Positions 1,671 through 59,348 of a stretch of 64,000 bases of DNA are shown here, in pieces (position 1 is the stretch's first letter; every line of letters starts with the position of its first letter). The notes beneath the pieces were generated by a model. It worked only from the letters and a program-made list of their open reading frames with translations, did no database searches and was not told the origin of the DNA. Source of the stretch: a phage; NCBI GenBank assembly GCA_027262695.1, contig GCA_027262695.1_4722.1, one strand, 5' to 3'. Both the position numbers and the translations under genes were made by a program.

Positions 1671-2210
1671 TTAAGCTCCTTTATGCTTTGTTTTGATTGA
1701 TGATGTTAACCAGGATGATCTTACCGTAAAGCCTTCGGATTCATAGAACGCTTGGGCTTCAGCGTTATCGGCACGAACATCCAAACCGATGGCGTGCCCA
1801 CCGCAATGGTACGCGACGTTACGGGCTTCGTTCATCAAGGCATGACCAATTCCGCGTCCGCGATACTCTTGCTTTACGATAATCGACGTCACGTCATGAA
1901 TACCCATATGGCTCTCGGTGTTCACTTCCAGGAGTCCTACCGGTATTGAGGCAATAGCATCGATCATGACAATCAACATCGCGCCAGCTGGGAGACGGTC
2001 TTCCAATTCCAGGGAAGCGTACTCGTCTTTTAAACTAGGGATACGTTCTGGTAGGAAGGTATCTATCCAGGCTTCCGATTCTGCATCATCGAGAATACGA
2101 TACAGTTCACGAATCCGCTGTTTATGTGGATAGAGGTGTGGGTCAGCCGCCGTTGAAGCGATAATGCAGTGGAACGGCCGTTCATTGATGACCAATGATT
2201 TAATACTCAC
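1671..2210 (-). CDS. GNAT-family N-acetyltransferase
   Basis: Acetyl-CoA binding motif QEYRGRGIGHALM and C-terminal AQAFYESEGF. Confidence 0.7.
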   Translation of the reverse strand: MSIKSLVINERPFHCIIASTAADPHLYPHKQRIRELYRILDDAESEAWIDTFLPERIPSLKDEYASLELEDRLPAGAMLIVMIDAIASIPVGLLEVNTESHMGIHDVTSIIVKQEYRGRGIGHALMNEARNVAYHCGGHAIGLDVRADNAEAQAFYESEGFTVRSSWLTSSIKTKHKGA

Positions 2211-2713
2211 GCTAAGTTTTCCTCGTTTTCTAAGAGTCGATTACGATGACGTTTATACATTTGATGTAACGCTGTGATCTGATAAAATTTCTTATAGCGT
2301 CTTTCAATCCGCTTCTGCACCTCTTTCCATGGGAGTTTATCGTATTGACGATAACGATGGATTTCATTTAACATGCGGAGTCGATCAGGGTCTGTGTTCT
2401 GTATCGTCCTGAGTTTGATACGCTGGTAACCGCGTTGTAACCCCGATTCAGAATACGTCACACCGAATTCATCTTGAATTAAGGTGATGATCTCCCGCCA
2501 ACGTCGTTTCTCACCGTCGCGCAAATGCACGACCCGCGATAAAATATCGTTACGATTACGATGACTCAGCTTGATATTAAGCATTGAAGCGATCGCGCTT
2601 ATCCCTCTCTGACTCCGTCCTAACGCTTCACCGATCTCCTTTGATGTCATGACGCCAGCGTTTCGGCGTATGAATGCGATTTCGGTTGTTGTGTATTCTT
2701 TACCTGCTGCCAT
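2207..2713 (-). CDS. HTH DNA-binding protein, paralog 1 of six-gene tandem array (most diverged)
   Basis: HTH-like TTTEIAFIRRNAGVMTSKEIGEALGRS; C-terminal W-x2-I-x5-EF-x-TY region shared with paralogs 2-6. Confidence 0.5.
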   Translation of the reverse strand: MAAGKEYTTTEIAFIRRNAGVMTSKEIGEALGRSQRGISAIASMLNIKLSHRNRNDILSRVVHLRDGEKRRWREIITLIQDEFGVTYSESGLQRGYQRIKLRTIQNTDPDRLRMLNEIHRYRQYDKLPWKEVQKRIERRYKKFYQITALHQMYKRHRNRLLENEENLA

Positions 2714-3177
2714 TTCTTACCACGTGTGTTATAATAGTAACGCTGACAAAGATGTGTGTGGTGATACTCCCGTTTGAACTCGATGCTGATAACGCGAGCA
2801 ACTTCTCTCCAGCTAACTCCTTCACGTCGAAGTACCGCAATACGACCTGAAATTTTGCACCATTCGCCCGGGTCATATCGCCGTAGCTTATGTCGTCGTA
2901 TTACAGAGGCGACACTCGCTTTCGACCGGCCAAGATGATTCGACATTTGTTTAACCGAGTATCTGTGGATATTGTTACGGATATAGGAAAGCTCATCGTC
3001 AGTATATGCCGCGTTGGTTCTCGGTGAAGGAAATAAAATATATAACTTATTCTTAATCGCGCTTTCTGTGCGTTGAAATACAGTAGCCAGATCACTAATC
3101 GGTGGTCTGGGTATTTGGTATGCGTAATTCTCGAGGCGGGAGAGTTCCTCATCTGTCCAGCGACGACACTTGCGCAT
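2647..3177 (-). CDS. double Myb/SANT-like HTH protein, paralog 2
   Basis: RWTDEELSRL and YTDDELSYI repeats; start moved to ATG 3177 with AAGGAG RBS (ORF track uses TTG at 3183). Confidence 0.55.
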   Translation of the reverse strand: MRKCRRWTDEELSRLENYAYQIPRPPISDLATVFQRTESAIKNKLYILFPSPRTNAAYTDDELSYIRNNIHRYSVKQMSNHLGRSKASVASVIRRHKLRRYDPGEWCKISGRIAVLRREGVSWREVARVISIEFKREYHHTHLCQRYYYNTRGKKWQQVKNTQQPKSHSYAETLAS

Positions 3178-3646
3178 GGGCAACTCCTTTATTTTTCATG
3201 TGGTAATACCAGCGCTGATATAACGCATGTTTGTTCGTTACAACACCAAATTTGACGACAACGTCGTACGTAATCTCATCCCAGCTTTTCGTGACCTTAA
3301 GTCGTTCGTTAATGAAATCGAGCACACGCTGTCGTTCTTGTCGGGTTGGTGAGCGACGTATTCCGTTAAGGCGGACGAACTGACGGACCGAATCATAGGA
3401 CCGATTCAAATCAACCGCGATCTCACGTAACGTCTTCTGTTTTATTACCGACTCGATGTACGTACGTTCTTTGTTGGTATAAGGTCGATAGTTTTGACGA
3501 CGTTGTAATCCTAAACGTCTCAAACGTGTGTCGATACTCGCCTTGGTTCGATTCATCTGTTGTGCGATTTCATCGATCGATAACGTCGTGTTAGTGTAAA
3601 GATGCGCAACCGCTTCGAGATCTTTATTGCGCCACGGTCGTACCAT
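3149..3646 (-). CDS. double Myb/SANT-like HTH protein, paralog 3
   Basis: Two HTH repeats (IDEIAQQMNRTKASIDTRLRRL; LREIAVDLNRSYDSVRQF); GAGG RBS. Confidence 0.55.
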   Translation of the reverse strand: MVRPWRNKDLEAVAHLYTNTTLSIDEIAQQMNRTKASIDTRLRRLGLQRRQNYRPYTNKERTYIESVIKQKTLREIAVDLNRSYDSVRQFVRLNGIRRSPTRQERQRVLDFINERLKVTKSWDEITYDVVVKFGVVTNKHALYQRWYYHMKNKGVAHAQVSSLDR

Positions 3647-15787: not shown

Positions 15788-16084
15788 TTATACCGCTACT
15801 TGTGCTTTAATAGCAGGGTGTGATTGATATCCGACGAACACGAAGTCTTCGTAACGGTAATCCGTGATACTCTCTGGTTTCCGCACAATTTTCAGTTTTG
15901 GTAACGGATACGGCTCACGACTAAGTTGTTCTTTAACCTGTTCGAAGTGGTTATGGTAGATGTGACAATCTCCACCTGTCCACACGAACTCCCCAACGTC
16001 CATATTCAGCTGTTGGGCGATCATGTGTGTCAACAGCGAATATGATGCGATGTTGAACGGAACACCTAAAAATACGTCAGCACT
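15788..16084 (-). CDS. thyA: thymidylate synthase, exon 2
   Basis: [25 protein letters not shown]...[10 protein letters not shown] matches ThyA C-terminal region. Confidence 0.85.
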
Positions 16085-17191
16085 CATTCTGTTCAGATAA
16101 GGTCGTTAGTCTTATCCCGTTATGTTAACCGCTGTAGATTATCTCTACAGTTCGGACTATATCACGATCTCCTTCCCTGGAGACCCCTCCCGTTTCACAC
16201 CCACTTGGGCGTTACGCTACTCATCACTATTTTCATTCATCCGTTTAGTGCTTTCGCTAGTCTCTGGGCATTCTTCTACAAGTCTGTACGATTCAAATTT
16301 GGGATTTTTACTGCCTAATCGATAAAGTATCGTTGCCGGAACAACGCCTAACTGCCGAGCCGCTTCAGTTAGAGAGACGTACTCGATTCCATCGATTTCC
16401 ACTTTACGTGCGTTAAGTGGAATATTCCCTCTATTCCTTTCGGCGATGAGACGGCGCGTTTCTTCGCTATGATGTCGACCATAGAACGGATTCCTTTCTC
16501 CGGTTCTGGTTTTCGCAAACTCCGACATCTTTCGACGTGTTTCGTCACTGACTTTTACCCCTAAACGTCTCGCTCTGGATGCAGCAATATTCTCAGGAGT
16601 ACACACTTTTTGTCGAATGAGTTCACGTGTTTCAGGCGTATGTGTTCGACCATACATCCCGTTACGTTCACCGGGTTTTCCGTACACTATACGACGCTCC
16701 TCTGCTGTTAAGGATGCGTTTCTTTTGTTAACAGCATAAGCTATCTTATCGATTATTTTGTCACGGTCTGGGTTTCTGGTGAGGTTGTCTCCGCCTACGA
16801 CACCCAACCCAATATTAAGCAAAGCTTCATTCGGTAGACAGTCAATGAACTTCTGCTCTAAAGCATATGCTTCTTCACGAGAAGCGCATTCATCGACCGT
16901 AACCGAGATAAAGCAGCCCTTATTATAGGCATTTTGTAATCGACTGTTTCGATGAACACCGCGACGCAAATTCGATTTGTGATCCACTAAGCGTTGCTTT
17001 AAATTGTTGGTACTACCAACATAGACATCACCATCTTGGGTACATAACCGATATACTACTGGTTTTTTCATACTGCCTCCTTTATAAGAGAGACAGACAT
17101 GTAGAAGGTTAGCAACGGATTAGCCCGTAGGCTTTCCCGTTTTAAGGAGGTTATTCGACGTAGCTCACGCTACGAAGGCGCAGTTGCATTT
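16085..17191 (-). mobile_element. group I intron (td-type) in thyA
   Basis: Minus-strand P-like AAAACGGGAAAGCC (17143-17130), R-like CAGAGACTAGCG (16266-16257), S-like GATATAGTCCG (16164-16154); exon 1 ends CGT, IGS GCGC; ORF after QR is read-through (KCNCAFVA). Confidence 0.75.
16217..17071 (-). CDS. GIY-YIG homing endonuclease (intron-encoded)
   Basis: N-terminal VYRLCTQDGDVYVGSTNNLKQRLVDH (GIY-YIG), repeated RNGMYGRTHTPETR / RNPFYGRHHSEETR NUMOD-like motifs; AAAGGAGG RBS. Confidence 0.8.
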   Translation of the reverse strand: MKKPVVYRLCTQDGDVYVGSTNNLKQRLVDHKSNLRRGVHRNSRLQNAYNKGCFISVTVDECASREEAYALEQKFIDCLPNEALLNIGLGVVGGDNLTRNPDRDKIIDKIAYAVNKRNASLTAEERRIVYGKPGERNGMYGRTHTPETRELIRQKVCTPENIAASRARRLGVKVSDETRRKMSEFAKTRTGERNPFYGRHHSEETRRLIAERNRGNIPLNARKVEIDGIEYVSLTEAARQLGVVPATILYRLGSKNPKFESYRLVEECPETSESTKRMNENSDE

Positions 17192-17914
17192 ACGCTGATA
17201 AAGCTGACACGACAGTGCGCGCGTAGGTACGTTATGCGCATTCAACCAGAGTTCGGTTTCGCTCTGTTTAACGTCGTCAGTAACCCATCGTGCCCTTAGC
17301 GCATCGTTACGGTGGACGTAATAAACACGTTCGTCGATGGTGAGCTCGTGAGTGTAGAACTGATAGAAACTATGGCATGCGGGAAGCGCCATATCGTCTA
17401 AATCGCCTACGTTCCATGCACTAACGATAATCCGCCGAGAATCAGGATCTTCTTTGAGTTGACGCATCACGTTTGCAATTTGGTCATGGTGTTTAACATA
17501 CAAGAGATGTTTGACCATACCGTCGTTAACAATACCGCAATACTCATAACCACGTTGCATCAAAGTACGGGTACGTTCTGTATCATGCGGAACAACCACT
17601 TTGTAGTCAATCCATTCTCGCCATTGTCTGCCGTAAATCGGTCCTAGATTCCCTTCCTTATCAGCCCACTCATTCCAGATGCGAACACCATTATCCTGAA
17701 GATAAGCAACGTTTGTGTCGCCGTTAAGAAACCAGAGCAGTTCGTGGATAACGCTCTTAAGGTGAATCTTCTTAGTGGTTACCAGCGGGAATCCTTTCTT
17801 CAAGTCAAAACGCATTTGACGCCCGAATACCGAACGGGTACCGGTACCTGTACGATCGGCCTTATCGCGACCGTTATCCATGATGTCTTGCAAAAGGTCC
17901 AAATACTGTTTCAT
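17192..17914 (-). CDS. thyA: thymidylate synthase, exon 1
   Basis: [61 protein letters not shown] match ThyA. Confidence 0.85.
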
Positions 17915-55356: not shown

Positions 55357-55734
55357 CTGTTTGTCGACTATATCTTCATCTTCATTGCGAAGAGACTCTC
55401 GTTTGGGTTTGTGTTTAACAAAGCCTACTCTACTCAACATCGCGTCTTTCGATAGTCTGTGAGCACACATCTTAACGAATATTCGTGGGTTCCTACAGAC
55501 AGGTGAATATTCTTGTTGAGATGCTTCGCTGCGGATTATTCCCGTCCTACCTCTTTTACCATACCCAGTTCATTACGCTGGCCCTCATCGATGTCACCAT
55601 GATGAGTTGGTGTGTAGTCCGATTACAGAAACTTCCCGTCAATTAGAGAGTTTTAACTATGCTCCTGTTACCAGGAACCAGATCCCGACGGTATCAATAA
55701 ATCAACGTAAGTTATTGATTTAATTGAAAAAACT
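55357..55734 (-). mobile_element. group I intron 2 in beta-prime gene (no ORF)
   Basis: Minus-strand P AATTGACGGGAAG (55643-55631), Q AATCCGCAGCGAAG (55536-55523), R CACAGACTATCG (55460-55449), S AAGATATAGTC (55376-55366). Confidence 0.7.
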
Positions 55735-55747
55735 GAAATCTGCATTA
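55735..55747 (-). CDS. beta-prime micro-exon 2 (13 nt, encodes part of Y-N-A-D-F)
   Basis: Minus-strand ATAATGCAGATTT between the two introns; joined to flanking exons gives ...KGYNADFDGDAM... and a 1494-nt in-frame CDS. Confidence 0.6.
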
Positions 55748-56114
55748 TCTTAATCTTCGATATGGTTCGCTAAGCCATATCCGCACATACGTGCAGCTTA
55801 CGTCTTTCACGTAAGAAGAGACTATATCTTTCACCCTCAGCTTTACCTGTTAGGGGCTCCCATTTCGGCGGTCGTTTGACCGGTGGTTTCCCACGCCGCT
55901 TGGCCCTAACGCCCGTGAGCGATAGTCGTTGAGCACATCTCCGTTCTGGAGACTTCGCTGCGGATTCCTCAATCCTTACTGCTTTTACCGTACCTGAATG
56001 ATTAGTTCAGCCCCACGCTCTGTTCCCAGGCATGGTTGGTGAGCAAGGCTCTAAGTAGGTTCCCGCTATTAGAGAGTTCCTCGTGACAGCATTACTGTGT
56101 CACTGGGCCTAATG
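55748..56114 (-). mobile_element. group I intron 1 in beta-prime gene (no ORF)
   Basis: Minus-strand P AATAGCGGGAAC (56069-56058), Q AATCCGCAGCGAAG (55965-55952), R CAACGACTATCG (55930-55919), S AAGATATAGTC (55829-55819); exon ends GGGT, IGS GCCC. Confidence 0.7.
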
Positions 56115-57357
56115 ACCCTTTCAAGATCATCACGCTTAACCCGATGGTGTTATCCTGCGGGTCGCGTTTAACCTTGGTGATTTCAAGACATTGGTTACTG
56201 CTACGGTCAAGTGATGGATTTCGAACAAAGCCACACACAATCCCATCGAACGGTGTATCAGCAATAAGCTCGTCATGCAGCTCGCTCATCATCGGATGAT
56301 AATTGCGGACATGCTCTGCAACGAACGCACGGGCTGCTCTTGGTGAATAACCACGATGGAATAACTTGGATTGGATATGTTCTTTATTGGTTAGTGTAAA
56401 TGGTGCGTACGGAAAATGCAGATGATAATAACGATGGTTTGCTGTTATCGAACTGATGACCGTACGTGTGGTGAATGGATGTAATGTACCTAATATGTTC
56501 TTACGTGTGATCCCTTTCTTCTTACCAATGAACTCATCGAAAATCGCCGAGTGATACTGCAACAGCTTCAATTGCACTTTCGCCATCCAGTTTTCTTTCT
56601 TTCTGGCGCTTAGTGGCGTGGTTGGATGATAGATGCTATTCAATGTTCCGATGGCGTCTATCGCACCTTCCATTTTGCTGTCAGCGTAACGTCCTGTTGG
56701 CGTGTTCTCGATCACGAACATCATGGCTGCAGGAAAGCTGATGTACTGACTGAAGAATTTATCCCGATGAATACGGATGAATTCGCGTAGCGTATCAACC
56801 TTCTCCATGTTCTTCGGTCCACGTAGTGTGGGTCCTTTATACAAGATCTCCATGATACGATCGAAGTTCTGTATAAAGCTATTTATACCGCGTCGTATTC
56901 CGAATACATCGAATTGCTGTTCCAGATAGTTCTTAAGTTCGATCGGTCGTTTTACGTTCGGACGGTAACTGGCATCAATGAGCCACGTCATCGTTTCAAA
57001 GCTTTTGATATTCAACTCGCTTGCCAGCACGAGATGGACCAACGGGTTAATGAACGCATCGATACCTTCCGGTACGCGCGCCCAGACCGTTGAACGAATC
57101 TCTTGTTCTGCTGGATAAGTGACAACCGTTTTACAGTTCGGGCACACCGTCCCTAATAACTCACCGCGATTATAGAAACCACAACCGCATTGCGGGGTGA
57201 TATCCAAGGTATCGCTCGAGTAAACACGGGTGATGAAACTGTTTAATTTCTTCTTCTCTTCCACGACCTTCGTATCATAATCGTTCAACAATATCGGCGT
57301 AAAAGGAAGTTCTGCGAGCTGTCTATCGAAACTGACGATATCGAGCATGATGGCCAT
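56115..57357 (-). CDS. RNA polymerase beta-prime-like subunit N-terminal part, exon 1
   Basis: Zinc site TPQCGCGFYNRGELLGTVCPNCKTVV ~ beta-prime YECLCGKY...CEKCGVEV; RKNILG...RTVISS ~ RFRQNLLGKRVDYSGRSVI; VRNPSLDRS ~ LNRAPTLHR. Confidence 0.75.
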
Positions 57358-57449: not shown

Positions 57450-59348
57450 TTAGAACAGGTTGAATGCCCCGCCCATGCCGTTACCGCCCACATTCGGACG
57501 ATCGTTACGTGCGTAGATGTTGCCGCTGATGGTACCCAGACCGCGAGCACGTGCTGCCATGTTACCACGAACAGCGGTGCCTGCCAGATGCTGGATGTTC
57601 TCAGGACGGATGGTGAAGCCTGCTTCAGCAGCCGCTTCAATCAGTGCCTGCAACGCCAGCGGATCGAAATCATAACGCATCGCCCAGCCGGTTTGTTCCC
57701 AGCTACCAGACAGAACGCGGTCGATGATTTCGTGACGAGCAACCACACGCTGAGACATCGACATATCGGTACGGTCGAAGCTGTCTTCCCAAGCTTCTAC
57801 GGTATCCGGGTTGGTGATGTTCATCATGTACAGATCGTCCATATCACGAATATCGTGACGGTTACCGTCCTGGTGGTTGTAGTGACCCAGCGGGATACGG
57901 TTACCGGTCGCGTAGACCAGCGGTGAGCCGTACGGATATTTCTTGCTGAAGCAACCCAGGGTAACATCATCGAACGCACGGAAGAGGGCTTTGTAGCCTT
58001 CGGAGTATTCCTGTACGTCCCCTTCAACATTACCCGAGAAGATCTTCTCAGCCGCCGGGATCATACGCAGCAGCCAGCTGTACTCGCCTTCTTCTGGTAC
58101 ATCGATAGAGATCAGCAGAGACGGATACAGAACCTGTTGCAGGAACTTGTAAATCTGCTCGTTGGTTTGCGTAGACAGATCCAGCGGTGCAGTCACTTCA
58201 GGATCCAGCACCATCGCCAGAGCACCTGGGTTATGCGGACCAATACCACGAGCCGCGTTGCTGATTAAAGACTGTGCCCATGCCATGCCGCTGTTCAGCG
58301 TAGCGATGGTACCAATCAGACCCAGCACGAAGCTGTTCGGCGTGAACGCATCCAGTTCCAGCGGATACATGCTGGTCATTACGTAGCGCGGCTGGTACTG
58401 AACAGTTGGCGGTACCGGATAACCGTTAACCAGAACAGGACCTTGCTGGAAGGTCGGGTTCTGCGGGCTGTAGGTCAGATCGATATAACCGGTGGATGCA
58501 ACCAGACGCTGCTGGCTATCGTAATCGCCCATCGCTTGACGGATGCGGTTAGAGATAGTTACAGTAATGTCGGAGCGTACCGGGTTACCCGCGATATCAC
58601 TGTCCTGCATGCCGCTGGTGTTATACTGAACGCTGCTGATCGGCTGGTCGCTTGCCATCATACCCAGGTTGAACTGAGGCAGGCCCAGTCTGTCAGCAAA
58701 ACGCATTTCGGTTGCCGTCTGGATCGCGTTATCTGCTGCAGACAGCAGGGTGGTTGCCAGATGCGCAGATTCAGCAGTGATTTCATTGGTCACAACAGCC
58801 AGACCAGCGATACGTACCGTACCGTTGGCTTTACCACCGATAGCCGCATACATCGCTGCCATGACTTCGTTGATGAACGTGCCGTTCAGGTTATCCACCC
58901 AAGTACATGGTACCAGGATGTTACCGTGAGGACCACGTTCTTCACGACGTGGCAGCGGAGCCAGGCCAGCAACCAGCGGAAGGACGTAACCGAAGAAGTG
59001 GTTATGATCGCCCACTTTTACACCGCTCATCACAACCAGGGTCGGATACGGTACGCTGTACTGGTTCGGGTCAACCGCAACAAAGATGAAGTCGTCTTTG
59101 AACTGGGTATCTTCCAGATATTTCTCCATCAGACGACGGAGATTCAGTACCTGCTCGGAGCCGGTATTACGGCTGATACGACGGCTCAGTGTACGGTTGA
59201 TCGTACGCATCGTATGAGTTACTTTAGGACGGTCAGCAAAATCTGCAGCGGTTTCGACCGCTTCGTTAGCGCGCTGCGCCGCGCGGGTTTCAGCTACGCG
59301 GATGTCTACGTTATCGTTACCGTTATTGTTACGTACGTCTAAGCCCAT
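57450..59348 (-). CDS. large early protein, candidate nuclear-shell (chimallin-like) protein
   Basis: 632 aa, TATATTAC-type box 71 nt upstream, directly upstream of beta-prime gene (as recalled for phiKZ gp54/gp55); no diagnostic motif identified. Confidence 0.4.
   Translation of the reverse strand: MGLDVRNNNGNDNVDIRVAETRAAQRANEAVETAADFADRPKVTHTMRTINRTLSRRISRNTGSEQVLNLRRLMEKYLEDTQFKDDFIFVAVDPNQYSVPYPTLVVMSGVKVGDHNHFFGYVLPLVAGLAPLPRREERGPHGNILVPCTWVDNLNGTFINEVMAAMYAAIGGKANGTVRIAGLAVVTNEITAESAHLATTLLSAADNAIQTATEMRFADRLGLPQFNLGMMASDQPISSVQYNTSGMQDSDIAGNPVRSDITVTISNRIRQAMGDYDSQQRLVASTGYIDLTYSPQNPTFQQGPVLVNGYPVPPTVQYQPRYVMTSMYPLELDAFTPNSFVLGLIGTIATLNSGMAWAQSLISNAARGIGPHNPGALAMVLDPEVTAPLDLSTQTNEQIYKFLQQVLYPSLLISIDVPEEGEYSWLLRMIPAAEKIFSGNVEGDVQEYSEGYKALFRAFDDVTLGCFSKKYPYGSPLVYATGNRIPLGHYNHQDGNRHDIRDMDDLYMMNITNPDTVEAWEDSFDRTDMSMSQRVVARHEIIDRVLSGSWEQTGWAMRYDFDPLALQALIEAAAEAGFTIRPENIQHLAGTAVRGNMAARARGLGTISGNIYARNDRPNVGGNGMGGAFNLF

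Follow-up and report, generated by a model that had tools for sequence, protein, structure and literature searches.

Group I introns bearing GIY-YIG homing endonucleases have been known in the thymidylate synthase genes thyA and td since the 1980s, and insertion between the arginine and serine codons of YQR|SxD, a motif of the active site (the position is called the R|S site here), has a known precedent in Bacillus. In a 64,000-nucleotide (nt) stretch of phage DNA (contig GCA_027262695.1_4722.1, hereafter the window), the thyA gene of a Goslar-like phage is very probably interrupted by such an element, namely a mobile group I intron that carries a GIY-YIG homing endonuclease open reading frame (ORF). 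What was computed directly is the anatomy of the locus, its RNA structure as judged by covariation, an ORF that is intact and under selective constraint, the site of insertion, and the traces that transfer has left in the phage population. The element is a known kind of selfish element, its description being new for this phage group, and is otherwise an ordinary example.

The described systems resemble this locus in different respects. The thyA intron of Bacillus mojavensis, which encodes I-BmoI, occupies the same R|S site and combines a GIY-YIG domain with NUMOD3 and no zinc finger, the I-BmoI protein being likened here by description. The thy introns of SPbeta/beta22-type Bacillus phages also lie at this site and have a GCGNC-type guide like that of the window. 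These Bacillus systems differ in host, being found in Bacillus and its phages rather than in a chimallivirus of Escherichia coli, and in the case of SPbetaL1 the RNA core is ~56% and the ORF (by tblastn) ~39% identical to that of the window. The beta22 thy intron was reportedly described by Bechhofer et al. in 1994, and the comparison with it rests on SPbetaL1.

The T4 td intron is likewise in the same gene, is of IA type with P7.2 and P9.2 (and P7.1, tentative in the window), and has its ORF in the P6a loop behind a hairpin over the ribosome-binding site (RBS). Its endonuclease, I-TevI, also joins a GIY-YIG catalytic domain to a C-terminal DNA-binding domain, and the 3' ends of the two introns are nearly identical (31 of the last 34 nt). 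However, the td site lies 21 nt further downstream (FLG|LPF), the td guide is GCCUGAG rather than UGCGC, and I-TevI, at 29% protein identity to the window endonuclease, has a Cys4 zinc finger. A further group comprises the Erwinia phages Joad and RisingSun, Pseudomonas phage SL2 and relatives, Vibrio phage phiKT1028 and Dickeya phage JA29. These share the insertion site, a homologous ribozyme (58-64% core identity) and a homologous endonuclease (36-47% identity), and their GenBank records give separate coding sequences (CDSs) and no intron. With respect to lifestyle, the counterpart is gp210 of PhiPA3 (Birkholz et al. 2024, PMC11620839). This endonuclease is likewise encoded by a mobile group I intron of a jumbo phage that forms a nucleus, and could act on co-infecting relatives; it differs in belonging to the HNH family, as a nicking enzyme, in lying in an RNA polymerase gene and in having another target gene.

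Anatomy of the interrupted thyA gene

The gene lies on the minus strand and consists of two exons separated by the intron:
17914..17192, minus strand: thyA exon 1, 241 codons, ending ...CAG CGU (Gln-Arg); from the ORF list, Pfam and alignment with Goslar
17191..16085, minus strand: group I intron, 1107 nt, beginning AAAUGCAAC and ending ...CUGAACAGAAUG, with the terminal (omega) G at 16085
16084..15788, minus strand: thyA exon 2, 98 codons plus stop, beginning AGU GCU GAC (Ser-Ala-Asp); from the ORF list, Pfam and alignment with Goslar

The borders read from the sequence are ...CAGCGU|AAAUGC at 17192|17191 and ...AGAAUG|AGUGCU at 16085|16084. Intron and exon 2 both start with A, leaving their placement ambiguous by one nucleotide; the border given was chosen because the group I rule (U at -1, G as the last intron base) resolves this ambiguity, and the last base of exon 1, U17192, is then the 5' splice-site U. 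The ORF at 17914..17165 (249 amino acids, aa) contains the N-terminal part of ThyA, 241 residues that end ...LSCQLYQR and are followed by KCNCAFVA and a stop, and matches positions 1-171 of the 266 in the Pfam Thymidylat_synt profile (234 bits). The C-terminal part is encoded by the ORF at 16087..15788 (profile positions 169-266, 143 bits), so that profile coverage is continuous over the exon junction. Removal of the intron yields an in-frame ORF of 1020 nt including the stop, encoding a ThyA of 339 aa, with a predicted messenger RNA (mRNA) junction of ...CAGCGU-AGUGCU (...UAUCAGCGU-AGUGCUGAC). The only close match to this fused ORF in the phage collection is thyA of Escherichia phage Goslar, which is uninterrupted and also 1020 nt long; the two align gap-free at 88.8% nucleotide identity. 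The intron is missing from Goslar thyA and from a second Goslar-like contig, L008.

These results agree with an original prediction made from the sequence of the window, which had placed the intron at 16085-17191, exactly where the borders fall. It had also split ThyA after ...LSCQLYQR, as do the ORFs and the Pfam matches, and had read KCNCAFVA as intron read-through, in keeping with an ORF that runs past exon 1 into the intron. Its expectation that the junction would restore a conserved sequence is borne out by the joined exons, which give QR|SADVFLG. The same split, at the same codon and with homologous RNA and a homologous endonuclease, is found in at least seven annotated phage genomes and in several other Goslar-like contigs, and because of this recurrence it is not due to chance.

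Ribozyme core and endonuclease

The ribozyme is divided into two halves by the endonuclease ORF, and its elements, all on the minus strand, are assigned as follows:
17195..17101, minus strand: ribozyme 5' half; from RNAalifold and pair counts on nine introns and the minimum-free-energy fold of the ORF-deleted core
16279..16085, minus strand: ribozyme 3' half; from a sub-threshold Rfam half-match, the nine-intron alignment and folds
17195..17191 with 17182..17178, minus strand: P1, exon GCGU plus A1 with the internal guide UGCGC, including the wobble U17192•G17181
17174..17169 with 17164..17159, minus strand: P2, with a GUGA loop
17150..17146 (5' strand) and 16190..16186 (P3'), minus strand: P3
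17141..17136 with 17119..17114, minus strand: P4
17132..17130 with 17125..17123, minus strand: P5
17113..17112 (5' strand) and 16269..16268 (P6'), minus strand: P6
17107..17101 (5' strand) and 16279..16273 (P6a'), minus strand: P6a
16262..16258 (5' strand) and 16159..16155 (P7'), minus strand: P7
16250..16246 with 16229..16225, minus strand: P7.1, tentative
16212..16207 with 16202..16197, minus strand: P7.2
16185..16179 with 16172..16166, minus strand: P8
16165..16160, minus strand: J8/7
16150..16144 with 16138..16132, minus strand: P9
16116..16111 with 16101..16096, minus strand: P9.2

The structure was derived from nine introns (window, T4 td, Joad, phiKT1028, JA29, LY2, Bobb, SL2 and SPbetaL1), compared with their ORF-bearing loops cut out and aligned without structural guidance. 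RNAalifold recovered P1, P2, P4, P5, P7, P7.2, P8, P9 and P9.2 from this alignment, with compensatory changes in 39 of 52 pairs. With P3 added, 93.3% of cells are paired, as against 35-44% once the partners are displaced by 1-3 columns, and double (compensatory) changes occur in 42 of 58 pairs, values that none of 500 shuffles attained. P3, P6a and P7 show full complementarity in every intron despite differing sequences, the U•G pair at the 5' splice site is present in 9/9, and all nine end in G. The minimum-free-energy fold of the window's ORF-deleted core gives the same helices (z = -4.0), and its J8/7-P7' segment reads GUGAUAUAGUC. P7.2 (16212..16197), which together with P7.1 marks subgroup IA, has compensatory changes in 4/4 pairs. 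The group I assignment made earlier is thus borne out by the covariation-supported helices P1-P9.2, the splice-site U•G and the terminal G, and the term 'td-type' suits an IA-like ribozyme that bears P7.2 and, tentatively, P7.1 and whose last 34 nt match those of T4 td at 31 positions. Scans for sigma-70 promoters and terminators inside the intron gave background levels; such scans are not meaningful where the phage is transcribed by RNA polymerases of its own.

The loop of P6a holds the endonuclease ORF, preceded by a hairpin that covers its Shine-Dalgarno sequence and start codon:
17071..16217, minus strand: homing endonuclease ORF, 284 aa; from Pfam, matches in the Protein Data Bank (PDB), invariant catalytic residues and the ratio of nonsynonymous to synonymous substitution rates (dN/dS)
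17100..17070, minus strand: hairpin over the Shine-Dalgarno sequence (GGAGG, 17080..17076) and start codon (AUG, 17071..17069)

The protein has an N-terminal GIY-YIG domain (PF01541, 49.1 bits), two stretches of NUMOD3 (64.4 bits) and a C-terminal DNA-binding helix-turn-helix of I-TevI type, and matches both solved I-TevI domain structures, PDB 1mk0 and PDB 1i3j (the DNA-binding domain; E = 2e-9, residues 179-254). Aligned with I-TevI and seven relatives, the catalytic residues Y17, R27, H31, H40, E72 and N86 are invariant. The window protein has nothing that corresponds to the four zinc-finger cysteines of I-TevI (FCKC…CSKC) and carries NUMOD3 repeats instead, and the architecture is therefore I-BmoI-like rather than I-TevI-like. 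A dN/dS of 0.11-0.25, measured against the variants in two other Goslar-like contigs (L029 and L030), indicates that the ORF encodes a functional protein under purifying selection. Its last 21 sense codons and stop overlap P6a', P6', P7 and P7.1, and because the ORF end runs through these elements the protein has a C-terminal extension missing in relatives. The original prediction of a GIY-YIG ORF with its own RBS inside the intron therefore stands. The hairpin over that site (-10.5 kcal/mol, z = -3.3) has equivalents in Joad (-16.8) and T4 td (-12.6), and by analogy it probably holds back translation of the endonuclease; translation of I-TevI is said, in work attributed to Gibb and Edgell (cited in PMC11878797), to be delayed.

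Relatives of the endonuclease are distributed in a way that tracks its host gene. The nearest ones in phage genomes are nearly all inside a split thyA or adjoining td, the latter being free-standing genes of Acinetobacter phages in which td is uninterrupted. Variants among Goslar-like phages are 100, 85-87, 77 and 58% identical to the window protein. An identical protein was found by a protein database search in a draft 'E. coli O157' assembly, 248 kb being the length of the longest contig with it. A search of viral contigs by peptide patterns found no relatives, whereas the protein database search did. Complete E. coli genomes contain no megablast match to the locus, and its source is therefore not a prophage in those genomes.

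Insertion site, mobility and alternative explanations

The window junction is CGT|AGT, between the CGU arginine codon and the serine codon of the active-site motif (YQR|SAD), whereas the T4 td junction is GGT|CTA (...GAT GTT TTC TTG GGT|CTA CCG..., DVFLG|LPFN). The original prediction had equated the locus with the T4 td intron in gene and arrangement; gene and P6a location of the ORF hold, but the insertion site lies 21 nt upstream of that in td. The R|S site is common to the split thyA genes of Joad, SL2, phiKT1028, JA29, LY2, Bobb and SPbetaL1. In the window and all seven of these phages the intron is preceded by C-3, G-2 and U-1, the exon always ending CGU, and the guide shortly after the 5' splice site contains GCGCC in seven R|S-site introns, SPbetaL1 having GCGGC. 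Published numbering of the I-BmoI substrate gives a critical G-2, A+4/A+5, and A+8/C+9 followed by ATGGCC... (PMC3664794; also PMC2853131), which fits CGT|AGTAACGA-C only. Because this numbering fits the R|S junction alone, the window intron is placed at the B. mojavensis thyA/I-BmoI site. Identity of the ribozyme core to that of the window is 64% for Joad, 62% for SL2 and 56% for td, and the window endonuclease is 47% identical to the SL2 enzyme. Judged by sequence, the element is td-like in ribozyme type and arrangement, yet a member of the R|S-site thyA intron family.

Among introns at this site the ORF lies in P6a in the window, Joad, phiKT1028, JA29, LY2 and Bobb, in the P8 loop in SPbetaL1 (L005, intron 1748..2890), and, in SL2 (L002, intron 2206..3400), in a loop of P9.1 type that comes after an unbroken core. 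T4 td, at its own site, also has a homologous GIY-YIG ORF in P6a. The presence of homologous ORFs in different loops of homologous introns suggests that ORF and ribozyme have moved independently of each other.

Evidence of mobility comes from two other Goslar-like contigs, L027 and L028, which share a tract with the window:
17214..16037, minus strand: shared tract, the complete intron with 23 nt of exon 1 before it and 48 nt of exon 2 after it

The intron of both contigs differs from that of the window at 1 of 1107 positions, the single mismatch in the tract being at window position 16982. All 78 mismatches in exon 1 lie upstream of -23, and exon 2 of L028 diverges from +49 onwards, giving a tract of identity from -23 to at least +48; outside it the exons diverge by ~9-14%. 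Because a near-identical intron sits in diverged thyA genes with sharp borders of identity near the insertion site, the tract points to recent lateral transfer, as would be left by intron homing with co-conversion of exon flanks. A separate patch of exon 1 (window 17255..17315, gene nt 600-660), at a distance of ~60-120 nt on the upstream side of the intron, shares just 63-70% identity with Goslar and differs from all other Goslar-like alleles, intron-bearing ones included.

The intron-less alleles are themselves unusual at this position. Goslar and L008 thyA are 93-100% identical along most of the gene, whereas in ~60 nt around the insertion site Goslar, L008 and the intron-bearing alleles are mutually only 47-65% identical. 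The 21-residue site sequence common to all intron-bearing alleles is present in 0/20 full-length intron-less Goslar-like ThyA proteins. Their sites fall into two types, CML[LT][AC]RSQD..LGT.. and CQLYQRSCDT.LG[WK][SP]FN.., the nucleotide sequences being …CTCGCAAGATCACAGGACACAGTTTTAGGGACT… in Goslar (type A) and …TATCAGCGTTCGTGCGACACGCTCTTGGGTTGG… in L008 (type B). Variable columns make up 9 of 21 in the site and 51 of 318 elsewhere in ThyA (Fisher p = 0.005), one other region being more variable than the site, and the patch of variation falls where I-BmoI has its homing site, -10 to +41 (PMC2853131). A degenerate pattern for the cognate fused-exon site in an intron-less Goslar-like allele had 0 matches in viral contigs and 25 in metagenome contigs, all of the latter in ThyA only 37-52% identical to that of the window. 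Co-conversion may carry the canonical site along with the intron; alternatively, the variants of the intron-less lineages may have been selected for escape. An origin of the L008 patch by copying from host thyA was considered and dropped, the only match being 30 nt at 90-93% in a conserved coding stretch.

Three further ThyA proteins, P0095, P0103 and P0113 (~64% identical), have unusual active-site loops (CFYMMRSNDVALGKPFN, CFYMMRSNDYLLGAPFN and CQLYQRSCDYFLGGSFN). They are encoded on contigs of 127-226 kb, several of them filed under Salmonella, E. coli or Shigella assemblies, and are likely jumbo-phage ThyA; variability of the active-site loop may be general in these phages. NZ_CP173450.1 (221,873 bp), which the complete genome of E. 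coli strain 98232 lists as one of its plasmids, has its own thyA (match at 192479..192519) and is close in size to the ~220-226 kb contigs that carry many of the ~64%-identical ThyA proteins; a jumbo phage genome may have been assembled here as a plasmid.

Group I splicing is defined by two guanosine-dependent transesterifications. In the mechanism proposed for this locus, in which splicing activity and the specificity and position of cleavage are inferred, the transcribed intron RNA would fold into the P1-P9.2 ribozyme, its guide UGCGC pairing with the exon end GCGU to place a U•G wobble at the splice site, and would excise itself by these two reactions to leave an mRNA for intact 339-aa ThyA. 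The P6a-encoded GIY-YIG/NUMOD3 endonuclease belongs to the I-BmoI/I-TevI clade, and its translation is probably damped by the RBS hairpin. On the analogy of I-BmoI, it would bind an uninterrupted thyA target on the exon-2 side and cut beside the conserved G at -2, which is a few nucleotides before the insertion site. During co-infection, repair from the intron-bearing genome would then transfer the intron, together with short stretches of flanking exon, to the allele that was cut. The transfer footprint and the association of the clade with thyA are indirect evidence for such site-specific cleavage. A tentative extension, which has some chance of being right but is on balance doubted, is that the endonuclease serves as a weapon between co-infecting Goslar-like relatives and that intron-less lineages escape by recoding the target. 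If so, there would be an endonuclease-driven arms race on the essential, normally near-invariant active-site loop of ThyA, and an endonuclease made in the cytoplasm would need import into the phage nucleus.

Several observations weigh against the interpretation as a mobile group I intron. P7.1, P9.1 and P10 are weakly supported in the window intron: P7.1 (CACUA/UAGUG) is a 5-bp helix in the centroid fold that aligns poorly across relatives, and P9.1 and P10 could form 3-4 bp at most. At its gathering score (50 bits for RF00028), Rfam, a check proposed with the original prediction, gave no match on the whole window; for the thyA intron, a permissive scan returned only two sub-threshold halves flanking the ORF (17.3 and 17.0 bits). 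The model fails because the 821-nt ORF-bearing loop in P6a interrupts the match, and the score is uninformative because the archetypal T4 td intron also fails (40.3 bits, compared with 69.9 for the contiguous core of SL2 and 50.7 for SPbetaL1). Reaching the gathering score is an operational criterion and does not define group I introns. The I-TevI_DNA-bd match (23.3 bits) is below the curated cut-off of 27, and general recombination, as opposed to homing driven by the endonuclease, could account for part of the mosaic seen in Goslar-like phages. The absence of a threshold Rfam match, together with public annotations of the homologous loci, in which 'thymidylate synthase' appears as two CDSs, the endonuclease as a third and no intron is marked, would suit a free-standing endonuclease cassette that split thyA into two separately translated pieces or left a pseudogene. 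This is very unlikely: the ~250 nt of non-coding flanks form a group I core with extensive compensatory changes, the U•G at the 5' junction and the terminal G are kept, and exon 2 has no in-frame start of its own except an AUG to which the intron contributes its last two bases and the exon its first. Moreover, the exons are collinear with intact ThyA, and the free-standing relatives next to td in Acinetobacter phages leave that gene whole.

If the RNA is an intron, its shared host gene, its P6a-borne ORF, its similarly sequestered RBS and its 3' end could indicate that it is the T4 td intron itself, orthologous, at the same site and acquired from a T-even phage with the same E. coli host. The probability of this is negligible: the 21-nt distance between insertion sites already refutes it, the guides differ, the core is closer to those of Joad and SL2 than to td, and the endonuclease is closer to that of SL2 than to I-TevI and is without the zinc finger. 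Slightly more credible, yet improbable, is an intron that splices but is an immobile relic like the T4 nrdB intron, inherited only vertically, with an endonuclease that is inactive or without a cleavable target. The lack of the cognate site in the 20 intron-less Goslar-like alleles and of a fused-exon Goslar-like allele in viral or metagenome contigs fits this idea, in that susceptible targets may be rare. A relic would not be expected to keep a full-length ORF under purifying selection with all catalytic residues, nor to recur with one mismatch in 1107 nt in thyA backgrounds ~9-14% apart, with sharp borders near the insertion site. A mobile intron remains the favoured explanation.

Phage context and other probable introns of the window

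The window encodes chimallin, the phage nuclear shell protein (ORF 57450..59348, minus strand; PF25677, 90.5 bits), and therefore derives from a nucleus-forming Goslar-like jumbo phage in which transcription is apart from translation. The thyA mRNA and the cytoplasm-made endonuclease would have to cross this shell in opposite directions (context in PMC12908238). In the literature consulted, introns of chimalliviruses are mentioned only for the RNA polymerase gene of PhiPA3, whose intron endonuclease mediates competition between co-infecting phages (PMC11620839). The thyA element would add a second class of mobile intron, of the GIY-YIG kind and in thyA, to the nucleus-forming jumbo phages.

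The main value of the locus is that it corrects an annotation and makes competition mediated by introns tractable in phages that form a nucleus. The three genes called in public assemblies (two 'thymidylate synthase' fragments and a 'GIY-YIG nuclease') would become one intron-containing gene, and the same correction applies to Joad, RisingSun, SL2, phiKT1028 and JA29. The Goslar-like phages offer a test set, with the same intron in diverged backgrounds, mapped co-conversion borders, endonuclease variants at 77-100% identity and intron-less alleles showing two kinds of altered target, that could be used to probe homing, marker exclusion and target escape across the phage-nucleus barrier. Crosses are feasible given that Goslar is an established E. 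coli model.

Elsewhere in the window, two tandem ORF-less group I introns appear to be present at 55361..56116 (minus strand), near the 3' end of an RNA polymerase beta'-like gene (ORF 57357..56092). Rfam RF00028 matches them at 55726..55357 (49.2 bits) and 56135..55798 (26.9 bits). Goslar has a ~1.4-kb HNH endonuclease gene after its intron, and none is present in the window. The upstream segment of ~368 nt (56116..55749) is without a Goslar counterpart, and the downstream intron corresponds to the Intron_gpI annotated in Goslar.

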